A stretch of 64,000 nucleotides of DNA, from sequence record NC_019500.1, one strand, 5' to 3'. Made by a program: the position numbers and the translations under genes. Positions 1-62,682 of this stretch are shown here, piece after piece. The notes under the pieces are model-generated. The model saw nothing but the letters and a program-made list of their open reading frames with translations. It did no database searches and was not told the origin of the DNA. This DNA is from Escherichia phage Bp7. How positions within the stretch are numbered: position 1 is the first letter of the stretch; every line of letters begins with the position of its first letter.

Positions 1-855
1 ATGAAAAACCTTCGTTTTGATTCCCAGACTAAAGAGCGTTTGACTAGCCCTTATGGCGAAATCCGTAGTCATATTAAGTTAGATACTAAAAAGTTGGCCA
101 AAAGCATTCTGAATTCTGAAGCGGTATTGATGCCCATTATCGAAGCTGCTTTAGCACGTAAATTAGCAGCTGAAAAGGCAGCTGAAACTAAAGCCGCTAA
201 GAAAGCTTCTAAAGCCAAGGTCCATAAGCATATTAAAGCCAACTTATACGGCAAAGATGCTGATACAACCCTGTTCCTAACCGAAGGTGATTCCGCTATG
301 GGTCCTTTCATTGAAGTCCGTAATAAAGACCTTCAAGGTGGCTATCCATTACGTGGTAAGGTTATGAATACCTGGGGAATGACAGCAACAGATATCATGA
401 AGAACAAGGAACTATTTGATATCTGTGCAATCACTGGATTGATTATTGGTGAACCTGCAGAGAAAACTAACTATCGTAATATTGCTATTATGACTGATGC
501 TGATGTGGATGGTACTGGTTCGATTTATCCATCATTGCTAGCCTTCTTTAGCCAATGGCCTGAATTGTTCAAACAAGGCCGAGTACGTTTCTGTAAAACT
601 CCGGTAATTATTGCCCAGGTCGGTAAAGAACAGGAATGGTTCTATGATGTTCCTAGTTATACCAAAGCTAAGGACTCTCTACCAAAACATTCTATTCGGT
701 ATATCAAAGGACTAGGTTCTCTTGAGAAAGCTGAATACCGCCGAATGATTCAAGACCCTAAATTTGATGTTGTTCAATTACCTGAAGATTGGAAAGAACA
801 GTTCGAAATGCTCCTTGGTAATGACCCTCAACTCCGTAAGGCCTGGATGTCGTAA
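1..855 (+). CDS. 39: DNA topoisomerase II large subunit, C-terminal part (5' end outside window); gp39 and gp60 regions in one continuous frame
   Basis: Toprim motif IAIMTDADVDGTGSIYP and conserved tail HSIRYIKGLGSLEKAEYRRMIQ...LRKAWMS as in T4 gp60 C-terminus; rIIA follows as in T-even phages. Confidence 0.9.
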   Translation: MKNLRFDSQTKERLTSPYGEIRSHIKLDTKKLAKSILNSEAVLMPIIEAALARKLAAEKAAETKAAKKASKAKVHKHIKANLYGKDADTTLFLTEGDSAMGPFIEVRNKDLQGGYPLRGKVMNTWGMTATDIMKNKELFDICAITGLIIGEPAEKTNYRNIAIMTDADVDGTGSIYPSLLAFFSQWPELFKQGRVRFCKTPVIIAQVGKEQEWFYDVPSYTKAKDSLPKHSIRYIKGLGSLEKAEYRRMIQDPKFDVVQLPEDWKEQFEMLLGNDPQLRKAWMS

Positions 856-9820: not shown

Positions 9821-10455
9821 ATGTCTAAAATTACTTATATCATCAAAGCTTCTGAAGACGCCCTGAATGAAAAAACGGCTTCGATCTTAGTACATATCAT
9901 CAAGCATAACTTCATCACTTCAGGCGAAGTCCGTGAAGCCCTGAGTGAGCAATTTAGTGCTGCGGTAGTTAACTCTAATATCGGTGTATTAATTAAGAAA
10001 GGATTCATCGAAAATCTGGTGACGGACTAGTGGCTACAGGTGAAGCAATGGACCTAGTTCAAAAAGCTGCTGACTTGTTCGCTTCTGAAAATGCTCCAGA
10101 GATGTTGGAAAAACGTAAAACGCGTAGTTCACGTGGTGTTACTCCTGAAATGGTAACACTGGCTGATGAAGTTAAAGCTTTATTAGAAGACCGTATCGAG
10201 ATTCGTGAAATTGCTGAAAACCGTAGCAACCTTGAAGTTCGATTCGCTAAACGTACCAACGGTATTCGTCAAATCGAAGTCCGTCGTGATGGAATGATGC
10301 GTATCTTCGGTTATAATATGACTGATAAAGAAAAACAAGTGTTTACTTCCTTGAATCTTGATGTTAAGATTAAGACTGGTGGTAAGAATACTTATATCGA
10401 CTTCCAAAACGTATCATCTGAAGTTATCAAAACCGTAACCAACGCAATTATCTGA
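9821..10455 (+). CDS. motA: MotA middle-transcription activator; reading frame needs a 1-nt correction at the A-run 10011-10014 (ORFs 9821..10030 and 10030..10455)
   Basis: N-terminal ORF MSKITYIIKASEDALNEKTASIL...NSNIGVLIKKGFIE and C-terminal ORF ...SENAPEMLEK...KRTNGIRQIEV...MRIFGYNM match T4 MotA domains; the +1 frame across the junction reads KSGDGLVATGEA, continuous with the T4-like sequence. Confidence 0.75.
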
Positions 10456-12203: not shown

Positions 12204-12479
12204 ATGACTAAAATTGAAATTGTTTCCGAAATTGCTACTATTGTTTCCATTTTGATTAAAACGGATTGTGAAGACATCATGCAACGTCGTGATGAGTTTA
12301 TTGCCTTTTTGAATGAGTTAGGTATTCGTAATGAACATGGAAAGGAACTTAATGGTTTGTCTTATAACAAATTATTTAAGTCATTAACTGAAGATGAACG
12401 TGATACTCTTATTGAGCAATTTAATGAAGGGTATGAAGATATACACCGCTATCTAATGATGTATACCTCCAATTTTTAA
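12204..12479 (+). CDS. asiA: AsiA anti-sigma-70 factor
   Basis: 91 aa; IVSILIK, FIAFLNE and C-terminal LIEQFNEGYEDIHRYLMMYT closely match remembered T4 AsiA. Confidence 0.8.
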   Translation: MTKIEIVSEIATIVSILIKTDCEDIMQRRDEFIAFLNELGIRNEHGKELNGLSYNKLFKSLTEDERDTLIEQFNEGYEDIHRYLMMYTSNF

Positions 12480-13129
12480 CGAGTTCGACCTAATGTCCTC
12501 CCGGCTTGACCACACATAGACGAAAGTCTAGGAAATCCTAAATCCGGTTTGACATCGTACCAGTACAACGATATCGAGCCGGAGTAGACGTTATCCAAAT
12601 TAAAAAACGGGCACGAAAACATATACGTGAATTGTGTTTTCTTCTTTGTAGGAAGGAACACAGTTTCGGTACTTGATTCAAAATAGTTCCCGTTAACTCC
12701 CGCCATATATTCTATTGACGTTTTGTCAATTGGAAACCCTCCCGTGTTTTTTGCGTCTACCGTTTCCGGTAATTTACCCTCATAAGCCACCATATCCACA
12801 AAATAATTCATGTTGGTCGGCCTAAAAGAATATATTGCTGTGAAGTCTGCACCTGAAGAAGAATGCACTATTCGGAGCTGCTCGATAGCCGCAATTTTAA
12901 ATCTATTGTCCTGGTCTTGTCTAATCATTTCAGTATAAGAGGCATAAGTAGTCTCTTTATAAAAGTTTAGAATATACTCGCCTTTATACCAAACCAATGC
13001 CATAAAGAACAATAATATTACGACTAGGACCCGGGAAAAAACTACTTTCCCGGAAGAAGTATCTTTAAAAATTCTATCAAGAAGTCCAAAAAGTAGGTCT
13101 GATAATGAAAATCCTACTTTTGGTTCCAT
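12476..13129 (-). CDS. t: holin T
   Basis: 217 aa; N-terminal LLFGLLDRIFKD, a single TM (VVILLFFMALVWY) and large periplasmic domain with YSFRP.N.NYFVD and SCPFFNLDN.Y.G.I..YWY as in T4 holin. Confidence 0.9.
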   Translation of the reverse strand: MEPKVGFSLSDLLFGLLDRIFKDTSSGKVVFSRVLVVILLFFMALVWYKGEYILNFYKETTYASYTEMIRQDQDNRFKIAAIEQLRIVHSSSGADFTAIYSFRPTNMNYFVDMVAYEGKLPETVDAKNTGGFPIDKTSIEYMAGVNGNYFESSTETVFLPTKKKTQFTYMFSCPFFNLDNVYSGSISLYWYDVKPDLGFPRLSSMCGQAGRTLGRTR

Positions 13130-13147: not shown

Positions 13148-13155
13148 TATTTATA
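13148..13155 (-). promoter_or_regulatory. T4 late promoter TATAAATA upstream of holin t
   Basis: plus-strand tatttata = minus-strand TATAAATA, about 20 nt upstream of t start. Confidence 0.5.
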
Positions 13156-13157
13156 AT

Positions 13158-13949
13158 TTAATACTTTCGTATTATAACCAAGAGCCATAGATAGCGCCTG
13201 TAGCGCCCCACGTTGGAGACTTCCGAATACCGCTCTACCAGGAGCACCACCGCCAGATCTAGATAAGTGATTATCCCATCCTCTCCGCCCCGACCTCCAG
13301 CATCACCGCCATTGCCTCCGCCGAATTGGGAAGTGTAACCGGCACCACCCGGGGCGTCATAACTAGCATTACCACCCGGCCAATTAACGCCGCCTCCACC
13401 GATGCCAAATGGTCTACCACCACCGCCACCTGCTGTAGCATTTGGCGCCCAGCTATTCTGTAATGACACTGCACCACCACCGCCGCCGCCTGATGCAATA
13501 ACGCCATAGTTCCAAATACGAAGTCTTCCGCCGATATCATTTTGGATTACATCGCCGCCATTTGTGCCAGGGTTTCCGTTTACAGTACCGTTACCACCTC
13601 GTCCCCACATATGAACTCCACCATGAATATTCAAAGTAACATATTCGTTAGGGGTATCACCGTACATAAAGAACAATGGAACATCTTTAGTATATGATAC
13701 TAAGTTGCCTGTGATATTAAACACTATAGGAGCACCACCAGCTTCAAAACAACGGTCTCTAAACCACTGCCCGTTAAAGTTATGGTCTGCTCCGAGCGTG
13801 TGAATAATCTCACGAGACCGACCTGCAAATTGAGACATCCAAGATGGGTTACCAAGACGCAATTCTCTAGAAGCGGCCGTCATCCAACGTTGACCTGTTT
13901 CAGCCACTGCTGATGTTCCAATCCAACCAGGAATTCCTACTACTGCCAT
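13158..13949 (-). CDS. 38: tail-fibre adhesin gp38 (T2-type, glycine-rich motifs)
   Basis: 263 aa directly after gene 37; several poly-Gly segments ([22 protein letters not shown]) separated by variable stretches, as in T2/Ox2-type gp38. Confidence 0.75.
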
Positions 13950-13978
13950 AAAAACCTCCAGGGCCCGAAGGCCCTTTC

Positions 13979-16900
13979 TTATAATAATGATTTAATTAAT
14001 GCTTTCAATTCAGCAATTTCAGATTTCAATTCCTTGATTTCGTCAGTATGCTCATTGATAGTAGCAGTATTTAAACCGATAATACCGTTATAGTTTAAAC
14101 GAAGTAAGCCAGTCTCTTTATCTTCGGTCACAAGTTCAGGCAATACTTCTTGAACTTCCTGAGCAATTAAACCTGCTGACGGTTTAACTTCGTCAGTAAC
14201 AGAGTTTTTAAGCAGATAAGTATAACCACCTAAGAGTTTGGATTTCTCTTGAGCGTTATCAATAAGCTTAATTTCAGACTTACAACGAATATCAGAACGA
14301 ATATAAACGTCGTTAACATCAATGTTATCACGAACATACATACCAGCGTTAACGTTAAGGGCCACGTCGCCAAATGTCTGGGCAAGTCCGGCTCGAATAC
14401 TGAATACACCTTGGCCATTAGCATACATGTTGTATATACCATCGGATTCCCAGACCAATCCAGTGTCAGCGTCACCAATTGCTATGCATGGCCCAGTCCA
14501 GGCGGGTTCAACACCTACGCCAATACCCGCCCAACCCGAAACAATTCTTCCCGGGGAAGTAAACTGCCCGTTGGCCAAAAATTGATAAATCGCCGCAGGA
14601 TGACCACTTTCCGGGGTATTTTCTGATGAACGGACAATTATACAACCAGTACCCCAGTCAGCATTACCACTGCGTAACGAGCCTAGTTCTACGCTTGTGT
14701 GATATCCATGCCCTGCTGAAGAACTTCGTCCTTTAATAATAGGATAGTACACGTTCCCGTTTAATTCGCCGTGTTCTACAAATATAGGGGCTTCAAGGCC
14801 ATACTGTGGATTAATAGCCCCAGCGTTTTGAGAGACCCATCTAGTAGCATTAACGTACATGCGGTTTTGGCTCATATTAACCAAACCAAACCCGCCCGGG
14901 CTAAATCCGATTGTCCTGTTATCTGATAAATCAATACCGGTAGTTGTTTTGTAGTTATAAAAAGATACTGAACCGCTTTCACCACCTTTACCAACAAACC
15001 AACTATTAGCACCACCAACTTCTGAACGAATATGCGAACTATTAGTGGCATTAGGTGCTCTAATTACTAAAGCATCATCGGCCGCAGCAATAGTCAGCTT
15101 ACCGGTCATCGTGTCACCTTCTTTAGAAACACGAGTAGCTATTGCATCACGAATGTTAGTTATATTACCTGCACCATTAAATCCGTTCCAAATGTCAGAG
15201 AAAATATTACCATTTCCAGCAATAATAGCTTTGCCGCCGCCGACCTCCACGTGTTCCGGGAAGTTAACTGTACCGTCAGCATTAAATCTTGAGGTATGAC
15301 CTCCGGTCCCGTCTTCTTTTAAATGATGTAAAACAAAAGTACCAGATTCTATTTCAGTACCTAAAGACCAAACTGCTTTTCCTTGTAAGAATTTCTGCTT
15401 GACAATAGGATAATATTTACTTACTGCGTCATCATCGATTTCCTGGAAAATAGGAGCTGCTTGAACATATTGAATATCATATCCACCGGCACCGGCGCCG
15501 TGACCAGTAAATTTAATATACCCGTTTGCTGCGAACGTATTGTAACTTGATTGTAAATCTGGAATAGTAACTTTACCAGTATCTAAAGCCAAACTAAATG
15601 GACGAAGTGGTCCGATATCACCAGTTTTACCTTCGCCAAAGGCGGTAGGAATAATATGAAGACTTCCTTCCGAACGGCGGAAAATGGCACCGTAGTCGTC
15701 GTTCCAAATTCTAAGGGCATTGACAGCATTACCAGCAATAGTACCGGATACGTTAACTTCTTCACCTACATTTATGCTTTCGTTTACACCTAAGGTGCCG
15801 TTTAAATGGCTTTGAATAGCACCTGAAGTCAGACGTTGATAATATTGAATCCAACTAGTGGCATCAGATATTTCCATTACGTTTTTGCGGTCACCTGCGA
15901 CATTAGTAAACGTATTACCCCATACAGAAATTGTCATATTATCAACTGAACTGCTACCAGTTGTGTTACCTCTAAACATCAGCGTAGAAGCATTATTTCG
16001 ACCATCAATATTAACCGAACCACCAACAACATCAATATTACCAGGAGTAACTAACAAACCGCCGTGAGTATTAACGTTTGTAGTACCTTTACCACGGAAA
16101 TAGTGGTGATAATTACCGCCTTGATAATAACCTAAAAGAGTTTGTCCGTCACCTACCGCGTTATTATCATGATAAGTGACAACTGTCGCCAAAGCATAGT
16201 TTTCCGACGGAGGAGTGGTTAAATCGGTACCGTTTACAGAATAACCCATAACCATTTTTCTAAGACTGGTGGTTTCTGCCGGGCCGCTCAGGAAAGTTCT
16301 TGTGCCGTTGTTTACACTAAAGAAATAACCATCTTGGTGCCATTGTAAGCCGGTATCATTATCACCAAGAGCAATTGAAGCCGTTCCTAATTCAGAATAT
16401 CCTTTAGAGCCACCTGGAAGACCTACAGAAATAGAATGACCTGCTTTCAATCCGCCCGACCATGTAAATGACCAAAGATAGGCGTCTAATCCATCTCCAG
16501 CATACCAGGTTATTCCATCATTATCTTTAACTTCATGGAAAATGCCCGAACCAACTGCATTTCGCATAACACGGAGATGGTTAATAGCTGTTTCACTTTC
16601 TGCCAATGGGGTATTATCGGCCAATGAATAGATATCATAATCTCCTGCAACTTTACCGTTGGTAATAACTTTATTGGTATAAATTACCGGAGTTGATACA
16701 GATTTCCATCCAAAAACTTCAGGAGAAGAAAACACACCATTGCCTGAAAACGCATAAGTGCTTTCGCCACTTGTCGCATAATCTTGTACGCGAATATTAA
16801 CTACCTGAGTGGTCGCTCCAGCATTATTTGGCGAAAAGATAATGCCACGTTCGCGGTTATTGCCATCGAAAAAACGAACATGTGATGTACTTGAACTTTT

Positions 16901-17239
16901 TGTAATAAGTTCTCCACCCTCAGTCATAATCTGCCCGGCGGCAATAATGTCACGAGTTACACGAGCAATACCGGTTAAATTAAAATCACCGGTTTGGGTA
17001 AAGGTACCATTTAGGGTGTAATCGCCTGTCTGGTTATAGTTACCGTTATGAATAACATTGCCGTCAATATTACCACCTTTAGCAAAGCCAAGGTCGATAA
17101 TCGCTCCGGTATCGTCTTTAGTAAAAAGTAATCGGTCCTTTAAGTTAATAGCCAGTTCGCCTTCAGCCAACTGTGCCGGTGTCGGACGTACACCGGCTAC
17201 TTTACTTCTTTTAAATTGGATTTGCTTTAAAGTAGCCAT
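13979..17239 (-). CDS. 37: long tail fibre distal subunit gp37
   Basis: 1086 aa, position after gene 36, Gly/Asn/Thr-rich beta-structure composition. Confidence 0.85.
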
Positions 17240-32561: not shown

Positions 32562-33236
32562 ATGTCTACAGTTTTTAATACTACCCCAGTTGATGTTTTA
32601 GTCGAGCCGATGTTCTTTGGTTCAGGATTAGGTATCGCCCGTTATGATATCCAACGTCATAAAGTGTTCGAAGAGCTTTGTGAAAAGCAACTATCATTTT
32701 TCTGGCGTCCAGAGGAAGTTAACTTGATGATGGACTCTGCGCAGTTAATAAGCTTCCAGAGTTCCAACAAAATATATTTACCAATAACTTGAAATATCAG
32801 TCGCTTTTGGACAGTATTCAGGGCCGGGCTCCTTCTGCTGCACTCCAAGCCTTGATTTCTGACCCTAGCCTTGATACATGGGTGGCAACATGGACCTTTA
32901 GTGAAACTATTCACTCGCGTTCGTATACCCATATCATGCGTAACCTCTATACAGACCCATCTAAGGTATTTGATGAAATTCTGTTAGATGACGCTATCAT
33001 GAAGCGCGCTGAATCCATTGGTCGTTATTATGATGACGTTATTGAGAAAACTAGATATTGGCAGAATGCTAAAGCTGATATTGAGTACCAAAAAGAAATT
33101 AACGCAGACGAAGATGATATTGAAGATGCCATAGAGCATGAGATGTATTGGAAACGTGAACTGATGCGTTCTCTTTATCTCTGTTTGCATGTTATCAATG
33201 CCTTAGAAGCTATTCGTTTTTATGTATCTTTTGCGT
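32562..33236 (+). CDS. nrdB: ribonucleotide reductase small subunit, exon 1; apparent 1-nt frameshift near 32723-32750 (ORFs 32562..32792 and 32789..33238)
   Basis: N-terminus ...FFWRPEEV in one frame; downstream NrdB motifs [35 protein letters not shown] in the -1 frame; exon ends with U at 33236. Confidence 0.8.
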
Positions 33237-33320
33237 AAAATGCGCCTTTAAACGGTAACGTTTATCGAAAACTCCTTTAATTGCTGGAAAGTCCTTTATA
33301 GGAAAACTAGCAGCCAAGGT

Positions 33321-33354
33321 TTTGCTTGCACCTTTAATTAGTATAATATAAATA
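33321..33354 (+). promoter_or_regulatory. candidate middle (MotA-box-like + TATAAT) and late (TATAAATA) promoters upstream of the intron endonuclease ORF
   Basis: tttgcttgca 33321-33330, TATAAT 33342-33347, TATAAATA 33347-33354, SD aagagga 33367-33373. Confidence 0.35.
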
Positions 33355-33381
33355 TGATTATACTTTTAAGAGGATGCACAA

Positions 33382-34188
33382 TTGAACTATAGAAAAATTT
33401 GGATAGATGCTAACGGACCTATACCTAAAGATTCTGATGGAAGAACATACGAAATCCATCATAAAGACGGTAACCGTGAAAATAATGATTTAGATAATTT
33501 GATGTGCCTTTCTATACAGGAACATTATGATATACATTTAGCTCAAAAAGATTACCAGGCTTGTCATGCTATAAAGCTTAGAATGAAATATTCTCCTGAA
33601 GAAATTTCTGAATTAGCTTCTAAAGCCGCAAAATCTAGAGAAATCCAGATTTTTAATATCCCTGAAGTACGAGCTAAAAATATTGCCTCTATTAAATCTA
33701 AGATAGAAAATGGTACATTTCATCTTTTAGACGGTGAAATACAGCGTAAATCTAATTTAAATAGAGTTGCATTAGGTATACATAATTTCTCTAGAGGAGC
33801 CCATGCAAAAGTTAAAGAACGCAATATTGCAGCTATAAAAGAAGGTACTCATGTATTTTGCGGTGGTAAAATGCAGTCAGAAACTCAATCAAAACGGGTA
33901 AATGACGGTTCACATCATTTCTTGTCAGAAGACCATAAGAAAAGAACATCAGCAAAAACATTAGAAATGGTTAAGAACGGGACCCATCCTGCACAAAAAG
34001 AAATCACATGTGATTTCTGCGGTCACATTGGTAAAGGTCCTGGATTTTATCTAAAACATAATGACAGATGTAAATTAAATCCAAATAGAATTCAATTGAA
34101 TTGTCCATATTGTGATAAGAAAGATTTATCACCATCAACATATAAACGATGGCACGGCGACAATTGCAAAGCAAGGTTCAACGACTAG
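33382..34188 (+). CDS. HNH-family homing endonuclease (I-TevIII-like), intron-encoded; apparent TTG start
   Basis: 268 aa; N-terminal HNH motif EIHHKDGNRENNDLDNLMCLS..EH and C-terminal Cys/His-rich region (CDFCGH, CPYCDK); lies in the nrdB intron as I-TevIII does. Confidence 0.8.
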   Translation: MNYRKIWIDANGPIPKDSDGRTYEIHHKDGNRENNDLDNLMCLSIQEHYDIHLAQKDYQACHAIKLRMKYSPEEISELASKAAKSREIQIFNIPEVRAKNIASIKSKIENGTFHLLDGEIQRKSNLNRVALGIHNFSRGAHAKVKERNIAAIKEGTHVFCGGKMQSETQSKRVNDGSHHFLSEDHKKRTSAKTLEMVKNGTHPAQKEITCDFCGHIGKGPGFYLKHNDRCKLNPNRIQLNCPYCDKKDLSPSTYKRWHGDNCKARFND

Positions 34189-34324
34189 TCTTCGGACGTA
34201 GGGTCAAGCGACTCGAAATGGGGAGAATCCCTCTGGGATTGTGATATAGTCTGGTCTGCATAGTAATATGTAGCAGTTCATAAGAGAACGGGTTGAGAAT
34301 TAGCGAGCTCAATCGAACATAACG

Positions 34325-34827
34325 GTACCTTTAACTTCCATAAGAACATGGAAATCATGGAAGGTAATGCTAAGATTATGAAGTTCATTGCACGTGATGA
34401 ACAGCTCCACCTTAAAGGCACCCAGTACATTATTCGTCAGCTCCAACTTGGTACTGATGGCGACGAATGGGTTAAAATTGCTCAAGAGTGCGAACAAGAA
34501 GCAGTTGATATTTTCATGGAAGTTAACCGTCAAGAAAAAGAATGGGCCGCTCACCTGTTCAAAGATGGTACTTGCCCTGGATTAAATACTCAGAACATGG
34601 GTGCTTTTGTCGATTACCTGACAGTTTCTCGTATGAAGCAATGTGGCTTACCGTGTCCTATTACTGATGCTCCTACTCGCCATCCTTATCCTTGGATTCG
34701 CGAATACCTGAACTCTGATGCTGTACAGGCTGCTCCTCAGGAAGTGGAAATCAGTTCTTACCTTGTAGCACAAATTGATAACGATGTTGATGAAAAAGTA
34801 ATGGCATCGTACAAGAAATATTTTTAA
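34325..34827 (+). CDS. nrdB: ribonucleotide reductase small subunit, exon 2
   Basis: ELMEGNAKI...ARDE.LHL.GTQ...C-terminal APQEVE.SSYLV.QID; in frame after splicing. Confidence 0.8.
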
Positions 34828-61182: not shown

Positions 61183-62682
61183 AGCTGCACCTCTTTCATA
61201 ACATAATTAAATTTCTCGTCGGCGTATCGTTGTATACGTTCCAATCCATGTTTCAGGCAATAATTTAAATGAACATATTTCTTTTTAGAATCTTTAGATT
61301 TAGGGCGGACTCCCATATCATCCACGAGGTCCCAGACTTGGGCCACTTGTTTGCTATCGTGCTTACGTAGAACACGCCCAATTGTTTGCAGAACAATGAT
61401 TTTAGATTTTACGCCGTGAGCAAATACAACGTGGTGAAGGTTCTTAACGGAAATACCAGTAGAGAACACACCATAACTTGCCACAACAATAATACCCTTA
61501 CCATTTTCCGCCATTACTTTCAGAGCATTACGCGTTTCGGTATTAACTTCACCTGATACGTAATAAACTTCTTTATGTTGCTCTTTAACCATTTCAAAAA
61601 GAGTTTTACCGTGTTCGATGTTTTTAAACATCAGGAATACGTTCTCTTCTTTCTTAGCGAGTTTAACAGCTAAATTAGCAACCCATTTATTACGACGAGT
61701 AGCCTTAGTAATGACCTTGATTTCTGATTGGTAATCTTTACCTTTCATCTTAACAGTGAATTCGTCTGGGTATCGAAGGAAAATACTGTTGATTTTAAGG
61801 TCGGTAACCTGTCCTTCTTCCATTAACTGGGAAGTGGATACCGGCTTAAACACATCACCAAACAAACCCATATATTGCATTAAATTAGCTTTACCATCTT
61901 TTAAAGAACCAGACAAACCGAATTTAAACATACAGTTGGTTAGGCCTTCGATGATAGTAGAAATAGATTTACCTGTAGCCAAATGGCATTCGTCGTTCAT
62001 AAACATACCGAACTGAGCAAACCATTCTTTAGGTTGCTTGATAGCAGTTTGATAAGTTGAAACGTAAATCATTGCATCAGAATCACGAGCAGTACCTGAA
62101 CGAATACCAAGCATTGCTGCTTTAGGGAACAATCGATAATCGATGAAGTCATTAATCATCTGGTCGACAAGTGCAGTAGTAGGAACCAGAATAAGGATTT
62201 TACCTTCATAGTTCTCAACGTAATATCGACTCAGGAGCGCCTGGATTAATGATTTACCTGCGGATGTAGGTAAATTCAGAATTGCACGACGTTTTGTCAG
62301 GCCGTTGTATACGGCTTCATTCTGATACCAATGAGGCTCAATCTTGGTAGACCCTGAATAAATTTCTTGAGAAGCTACCCATGAATCAAAATCTTCACGA
62401 GAAATATCTTCCTGTTCAAGAATACGCGGGTCAATCCACAGAGAATATTCAAATTGTTCAGCGAACTTTTTAATTTGAGGGACAAGTCCATAAGGGCAAG
62501 TTTACGGCAGTTACGTAATCTAGAAGAAGAAGACTTCCATCCCATTGCCCATAACGAAATTTAGGGTTGAATTTATATCCATCGGCTTCAAAGCTAAAAT
62601 AGTCTCTGAGTTCGTAGAATGTGGATTCATCACACTCAATACGAACATGACTAAAATTATCGAAATGTACTTGAATTTGCAT
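61179..62682 (-). CDS. uvsW: UvsW helicase (SF2); reading frame needs a 1-nt correction at the G-run 62494-62496 (ORFs 62470..62682 and 61179..62159)
   Basis: N-terminal ORF VHFDNFSHVRIECDESTF.ELRDYFSFEADGYKFNPKFRYG.WDG matches the T4 UvsW N-terminus; the -1 frame continues with PYGLVPQIKKF...NLPTSAGKS (Walker A), DECH, QTIGRVLR. Confidence 0.8.

Follow-up and report, generated by a model that had tools for sequence, protein, structure and literature searches.

The gp38 of phage T4 is a 183-aa fibre assembly chaperone that is not found in the virion, and T4 gp37 itself bears the receptor-binding tip (PMC3157838). The gp38 proteins of T6 and T2 are adhesins built from five Gly-rich motifs (GRMs) and four hypervariable loops (HVSs), and they close with a conserved C-terminal extremity (Trojet et al. 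2011). The Gly-rich motifs form a polyglycine-II sandwich and the HVS loops make the contact with the receptor (PMC12032242, PMC3157838). Structures are available for the gp38 of phage S16 in the gp37-gp38 tip complex (6F45 chain D), which comprises an N-terminal attachment domain, a beta-helix and a polyglycine-II sandwich, and for the receptor-binding domain (RBD) of PP01 gp38 as a GFP fusion (9v85). S16 is credited with binding Salmonella OmpC by Marti et al. (2013), a study taken here from the references of PMC7917993.

We analysed gene 38 of Escherichia phage Bp7 within a 64-kb stretch of sequence record NC_019500.1, referred to below as the window. The phage, the gene and the kind of gene are all known, and the product has already been annotated and studied experimentally. 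What is new is that the last ~37 residues of Bp7 gp38 are very probably given wrongly in the public record. The protein as entered in the databases is called the deposited gp38 below, and the product obtained when two bases are restored is called the repaired gp38. Bp7 gp38 shares with S16 gp38 the three structural parts named above, its model matched the S16 structure in a Foldseek search (E=3.5e-16), and the repaired protein ends in GSWL as S16 gp38 does; the two proteins are only about 46% identical, however, and their hypervariable loops differ. The closest solved structure is the PP01 RBD (64-67% identity, E=4e-73), whose HVS sequences also differ from those of Bp7. The T6 and T2 proteins (T6 being 64% identical) share the five-GRM/four-HVS architecture and the conserved C-terminal extremity, but they differ in HVS alleles and receptors, and the phages that carry them belong to Tequatrovirus whereas Bp7 belongs to Dhakavirus. 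With T4 gp38, only the gene name and the position between gene 37 and t are shared, as the 183-aa T4 chaperone is unrelated to the 259- or 263-aa Bp7 protein. At the DNA level, AlbertHofmann (Bas47, a Mosigvirus), NHEP11, OLB35, UGJNEcP3/4 and NC-G are 88-91% identical to Bp7 over gene 38 and its flanks, and their gp38 proteins are about 94% identical to the repaired Bp7 protein. Unlike the deposited Bp7 gene, all of these encode a 259-aa protein in a single frame.

Gene 38 of Bp7 and its protein family

An ORF of 263 codons, beginning with ATG and ending with TAA, occupies exactly positions 13158..13949 on the minus strand of the window. Exact-sequence matching identified its product with the Bp7 gp38 entries AEN93874.1, YP_007004198.1 and UniProt G3MUK4, and identified the ORFs on either side as Bp7 gp37 and holin (the Bp7 genome has 168,066 bp). 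The locus is gene 38 of Bp7, which encodes an already known and annotated tail-fibre-tip adhesin. The minus-strand gene order is 37, 38, t, as expected from the earlier note, in which the ORF was described as the gene after 37, and the synteny of this region agrees with that in JS98, QL01, UGJNEcP3 and LHE83. The deposited 263-aa protein was a singleton at 90% identity. The features of the locus are as follows.

13979..17239, minus strand: gene 37, distal half-fibre, 1086 aa, directly upstream of gene 38.
13950..13978, minus strand: 37-38 intergenic region, in which a GGGCC-UUCG-GGCCC tetraloop hairpin lies directly upstream of the gene 38 Shine-Dalgarno sequence GGAGG (read from the sequence).
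13158..13949, minus strand: deposited (mechanically called) 263-aa ORF, which keeps to the family reading frame through codons 1-222 only.
13824..13949, minus strand: N-terminal attachment domain, aa 1-42, matching Gp38_N (PF21721) at 1-40/40 and containing W9, W22 and W37.
13284..13604, minus strand: GRM1-4 alternating with HVS1-3, aa 116-222, the polyglycine-II sandwich and receptor-binding region.
13148..13155, minus strand: TATAAATA, a late-promoter-like box by motif match, located between the canonical stop of gene 38 and holin t; the stop of the read-through ORF (13158-13160) lies just 3 nt before it.
12476..13129, minus strand: holin t (T-holin), 217 aa, downstream of gene 38.

The translation of gene 37 matched Pfam Peptidase_S74 at aa 982-1038 as well as gp37_trimer, and it contains the motif DVYIR/SD, which is read as the autocleavage site of the C-terminal S74 intramolecular chaperone (PMC7917993).

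Searching Pfam with the 263-aa ORF returned GP38 (PF05268) with E=1.6e-68 and 231.3 bits, against a cut-off of 25 bits for this family, and Gp38_N (PF21721) with E=9.6e-21. PHROG 2056, 'tail fiber protein; host specificity', was matched with E=7e-98, and no NCBIfam model matched the protein. Sequence matches in the PDB were confined to 9v85, the receptor-binding domain of PP01 gp38, and 6F45_D, the gp38 of S16. An AF2 model of the 263-aa ORF, built on 62 homologs, had a core pLDDT of 84-96, and Foldseek retrieved only these same two structures with it (E 1e-16 to 1e-19). When the T4 gp38 sequence (NP_049864 from NC_000866, 183 aa) was compared with the window ORF, no similarity was detected, the best BLASTP E-value being 1.5. 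Bp7 gp38 is an adhesin of the T2/T6/S16 type and not an assembly chaperone of the 183-aa T4 type, in agreement with what the earlier note had proposed from the letters of the sequence.

The Gly-rich islands to which that note had drawn attention are present, since the ORF contains runs of six (154-159), five (174-178), four (184-187) and three (210-212) glycines with non-Gly segments between them. Glycine makes up 38% of aa 116-222 compared with 12% of aa 1-115. Across the 62 homologs the GRM region contains invariant Gly columns. In the N-terminal domain, a family alignment shows W22 and W37 without variation and W9 conserved to at least 90%. The match of the AF2 model to 9v85 and 6F45_D (E<=1e-16) indicates a beta-helix and polyglycine-II sandwich fold. 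By the Pfam GP38 match (E=1.6e-68), the Gly-rich islands are homologous GRMs rather than chance low complexity. Old GenBank product names such as 'long tail fiber assembly catalyst' would suit a reading of the ORF as a T4-type assembly chaperone, or of its Gly-rich segments as meaningless low complexity, but the failure to match T4 gp38, the strong and specific matches to adhesin-family profiles and structures, and the conservation in position of the Gly columns across 62 homologs refute it, and we give it practically no credence. The earlier note had also raised the prospect that the Gly-rich segments might be low-complexity artefacts in a protein without the conserved terminal domains; the GRMs are homologous and Gp38_N is present, whereas the conserved C-terminal domain does lie outside the frame of the ORF.

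Two single-base gaps in the 3' part of gene 38

Profile matches of the 263-aa ORF stop at about residue 223, where Pfam GP38 has reached position 182/218 and PHROG 2056 position 229/267, and the alignment with S16 gp38 likewise stops at S16 residue 217/249. The DNA of gene 38 was then aligned with that of four intact 259-aa relatives (NHEP11, AlbertHofmann, OLB35 and NC-G). Relative to all four, Bp7 has exactly two single-base gaps. The features of this part of the gene are as follows.

13282/13281, minus strand: frameshift site 1, GGAGA^GGATGG in Bp7, where the relatives have GGAGATGGATGG with an extra T; codon 223, at the GRM4/HVS4 boundary.
13219..13281, minus strand: HVS4 and GRM5, encoded in the second frame only and agreeing with the family consensus GGAxGRAVFGS.
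13219/13218, minus strand: frameshift site 2, AGT^CTCC in Bp7, where the relatives have AGTTCx (TT reduced to T).
13172..13218, minus strand: conserved C-terminal extremity and canonical stop, in the third frame only (three-frame translation).
13158..13280, minus strand: read-through tail of 41 aa (residues 223-263, ...IIRKY), out of frame.
13172..13949, minus strand: gene 38 with two bases restored, 778 nt in the record becoming 780 nt (259 codons and TAA).

The two 1-nt losses would thus move HVS4/GRM5 and the conserved C-terminus into other frames and create a spurious 263-aa ORF. GRM5 and the C-terminal extremity lie outside the literal ORF, are encoded in the other two frames, and become contiguous on repair. 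The read-through tail extends 14 nt beyond the canonical stop, toward the late promoter of t. It was common to no homolog in the family alignments, contains 5% Gly, and was modelled by AF2 with a pLDDT of only 26-46 (aa 225-263).

Restoring the two bases gives a 259-aa gp38 that ends at the TAA at 13172-13174. This protein covers the full Pfam GP38 profile (aa 47-259 to 1-218/218) with 274.8 bits, compared with 231.3 for the deposited sequence, and aligns end-to-end with S16 gp38 in 6F45_D (8-259 to 6-249). Identity to the intact homologs P0018-P0020 is 93-94%, with a coverage of 100% compared with only 86% for the deposited ORF. In family alignments the tail of the repaired protein conforms to the consensus GGAxGRAVFGSSPxWGATGTIYGSWL, while the deposited tail aligns with nothing. 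Among the 62 family members, G238, A240, V241, P246, W248, G252 and G256 are invariant in this C-terminal region. The earlier note had given the protein as 263 aa at 13158-13949; an ORF of that length is indeed found there, on the minus strand, but measured against the intact relatives its length is an artefact of the two 1-nt gaps.

Origin of the gaps

If the gaps are errors of the record, gene 38 carries GGAGATGGATGG and AGTTCTCC in the phage and forms a single 780-nt ORF. Of the 13-15 substitutions that separate Bp7 from its relatives downstream of site 1, 9-10 are third-position changes when read in the repaired frame, and the sequence upstream of the site is biased in the same way. This bias indicates that the repaired frame was under purifying selection while Bp7 and its relatives diverged. 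As a structural proxy for the repaired protein we used P0020, an intact relative that is 93% identical. In its predicted structure, aa 221-259 form four beta-strands with a pLDDT of 89-96. P0020 matched the PP01 RBD over 217 of 222 residues with a TM of 0.91, and the deposited Bp7 ORF covered only 183 columns of 9v85 (TM 0.76), since the C-terminal strands are encoded outside its frame. Judged by these models, the segment lost from the deposited gp38 is integral to the fold.

Amber mutants of T6 g38 that terminate just upstream of GRM5 give virions of normal appearance that neither adsorb nor form plaques (Trojet et al. 2011, PMC3157838). Bp7, by comparison, forms plaques, and gp38 is reported as its receptor-binding protein (PMC10987938, PMC11206709).

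Gene 38 is also not the only gene of the window in which the Bp7 record alone departs from a conserved frame. The motA gene (9821-10455, plus strand) is split into ORFs of 69 and 141 aa by the shortening of a run of five A to four near ~10015, and it is a single CDS of 210-211 aa in LHE83, JS98, QL01 and UGJNEcP3; the split is probably another error in the record. In nrdB (~32747, plus strand), TTT is reduced to TT at about codon 62 relative to KIT01, AnYang and LHE83. An additional A in an intergenic A-run at ~32549, upstream of the gene, hides the net change in length caused by this deletion. The equal net length had made nrdB appear unshifted relative to KIT01 and AnYang, a reading that we rejected because the alignment shows the -1 in the coding sequence to be offset by the +1 in the intergenic run. 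The 5' part of uvsW (~62496-62515, a minus-strand gene) differs from JS98, fDHCT2 and LHE83 by a cluster of extra bases (+5 and +2 nt) and several substitutions. This cluster breaks the UvsW helicase frame around residue 55-60 and looks like a stretch of low quality in the record.

Two further features of the window were observed at these and other genes. The nrdB gene is interrupted by an insertion of ~1.1 kb (33236-34326, plus strand) that is absent from LHE83 and carries a 268-aa ORF (33382-34188) with an HNH-like motif, IHHKDGNRENNDLDNL. We take it to resemble the group I intron in nrdB of T-even phages, which carries an I-TevIII-type endonuclease; in Rfam, no family matched the insertion at the gathering threshold. 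At the edge of the window, positions 1-855 (plus strand) contain just the 3' ~284 codons of gene 39, the large topoisomerase subunit, whose homolog in LHE83 is one 605-aa CDS.

In view of the T6 truncation phenotype and the other Bp7-only lesions, error in the record is much more likely than real mutation as the source of the gene 38 gaps. We consider it highly likely that Bp7 encodes a T2/S16-type gp38 of 259 aa and that the two bases are missing from the 2011 record through an error of sequencing or assembly.

The main competing explanation takes both 1-nt deletions as real, so that gp38 would consist of 222 native residues and an aberrant tail of 41 aa, without HVS4, GRM5 and the C-terminal strands. 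The deposited sequence does read so, and a minor point in its favour is that site 1 lies outside any homopolymer and is therefore not an error of the classic pyrosequencing type. The receptors reported for Bp7, LamB and OmpC, differ from the OmpF of Bas47 despite identical HVS1-3, and Bp7 gp38 could accordingly be unusual. Against this, the missing segment is invariant or near-invariant in the family and is predicted to form four confident beta-strands, and equivalent truncations of the T6 protein abolish adsorption and plaques (PMC3157838). The out-of-frame segments are moreover free of stops, conform to the family consensus and show the third-position substitution bias, and it is implausible that a vigorous lytic phage would also carry the Bp7-only frame breaks in motA, nrdB and uvsW. 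A collection of 5.8 billion proteins contained no exact match to the repaired gp38, the best being 93-94% identical, no contig encoding the exact product was found as an independent copy of Bp7 gene 38, and the literature search returned no earlier mention of a Bp7 frameshift. A small probability is therefore left for a genuine mutation in the sequenced stock, but on balance we hold real deletions to be unlikely.

Programmed recoding, by two successive -1 ribosomal frameshifts or by transcriptional slippage, would also yield a full-length adhesin, and it would account for three successive frames that together give a perfect family-consensus C-terminus. A search within gene 38 for a slippery heptamer of the form X XXY YYZ or for a run of 5 or more bases found none, however. 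Every relative has the whole protein in one frame, and in the gp38 family there would be no precedent for two efficient and independent shifts separated by 63 nt. Recoding was rejected for want of a slippery motif and appears extremely improbable. The proposition that Bp7 has either genuine deletions with infectious fibres bearing a 41-aa neo-peptide or recoding through both sites is very improbable. If true, a truncated or recoded gp38 could explain why Bp7 is reported on LamB/OmpC and Bas47 on OmpF despite their identical HVS1-3.

Implications for the record, lineage and receptor of Bp7

With the gaps read as record errors, the C-terminal 41 residues of YP_007004198.1, AEN93874.1 and G3MUK4 are very probably wrong, and these entries lack HVS4, GRM5 and the conserved terminus. 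The Bp7 gp38 record has been used to find gp38 genes and for alignments of receptor-binding proteins (PMC12032242, PMC10987938). Work that compares the 'C-terminal region', or that bases the design of constructs on this record, could therefore be misled. The similar defects in motA, nrdB and uvsW put the whole Bp7 record in doubt.

As regards lineage, T2, T4 and T6 all belong to Tequatrovirus. Bp7 is classified as the species Dhakavirus bp7, and the genomes most similar to it in the phage collection are JS98-like Dhakaviruses. Because the adhesin type is the predominant form of gp38 across T4-type phages (Trojet et al. 2011, PMC3157838), its presence is not a marker of a T2/T6 lineage. The nearest DNA relatives of Bp7 gene 38 are found in both Mosigvirus and Dhakavirus, a spread of alleles that, as far as sequence comparison goes, would fit modular exchange rather than lineage. 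The suggestion in the earlier note that the phage stands closer to T2/T6-like lineages therefore does not hold, given a JS98-like Dhakavirus, a widespread type of gp38 and alleles that cross genera.

By homology with the solved systems, a monomeric gp38 would cap the long tail fibre as its receptor-binding adhesin. Trimeric gp37 would fold with the help of its C-terminal S74 intramolecular chaperone, as published structures of homologs suggest, and autocleavage of the chaperone after DVYIR would expose a hydrophobic tip (PMC7917993). The N-terminal domain of gp38 (aa 1-42), with W9, W22 and W37 as Trp 'prongs', would dock on this tip, and the remainder would form the beta-helix and the polyglycine-II sandwich made from the Gly-rich motifs. 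The hypervariable loops are predicted to project distally and to bind outer-membrane proteins.

Bp7 gp38 is reported to recognise LamB and OmpC, and Bp7 to use LPS core heptose in addition, in the work of Chen et al. (2020) cited by PMC10987938 and PMC11206709. For Bas47, OmpF was shown by complementation to be the primary receptor, along with the LPS inner core (PMC8594841). HVS1-3 are identical in Bp7 and AlbertHofmann/Bas47 gp38, and homology would therefore predict OmpF for Bp7. The repaired Bp7 protein differs from that of Bas47 at six residues, I183 (L in Bas47), R220 (W), D227 (G), T247 (S), A253 (T) and L259 (I). Two of these, R220 and D227, lie on either side of frameshift site 1, at the edge of HVS4. 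Adhesins with identical HVS1-3 are thus reported to recognise OmpF in one phage (Bas47) and LamB/OmpC in the other (Bp7). Either the changes at R220 and D227, singly or together, switch specificity, or one of the receptor assignments calls for reconsideration.
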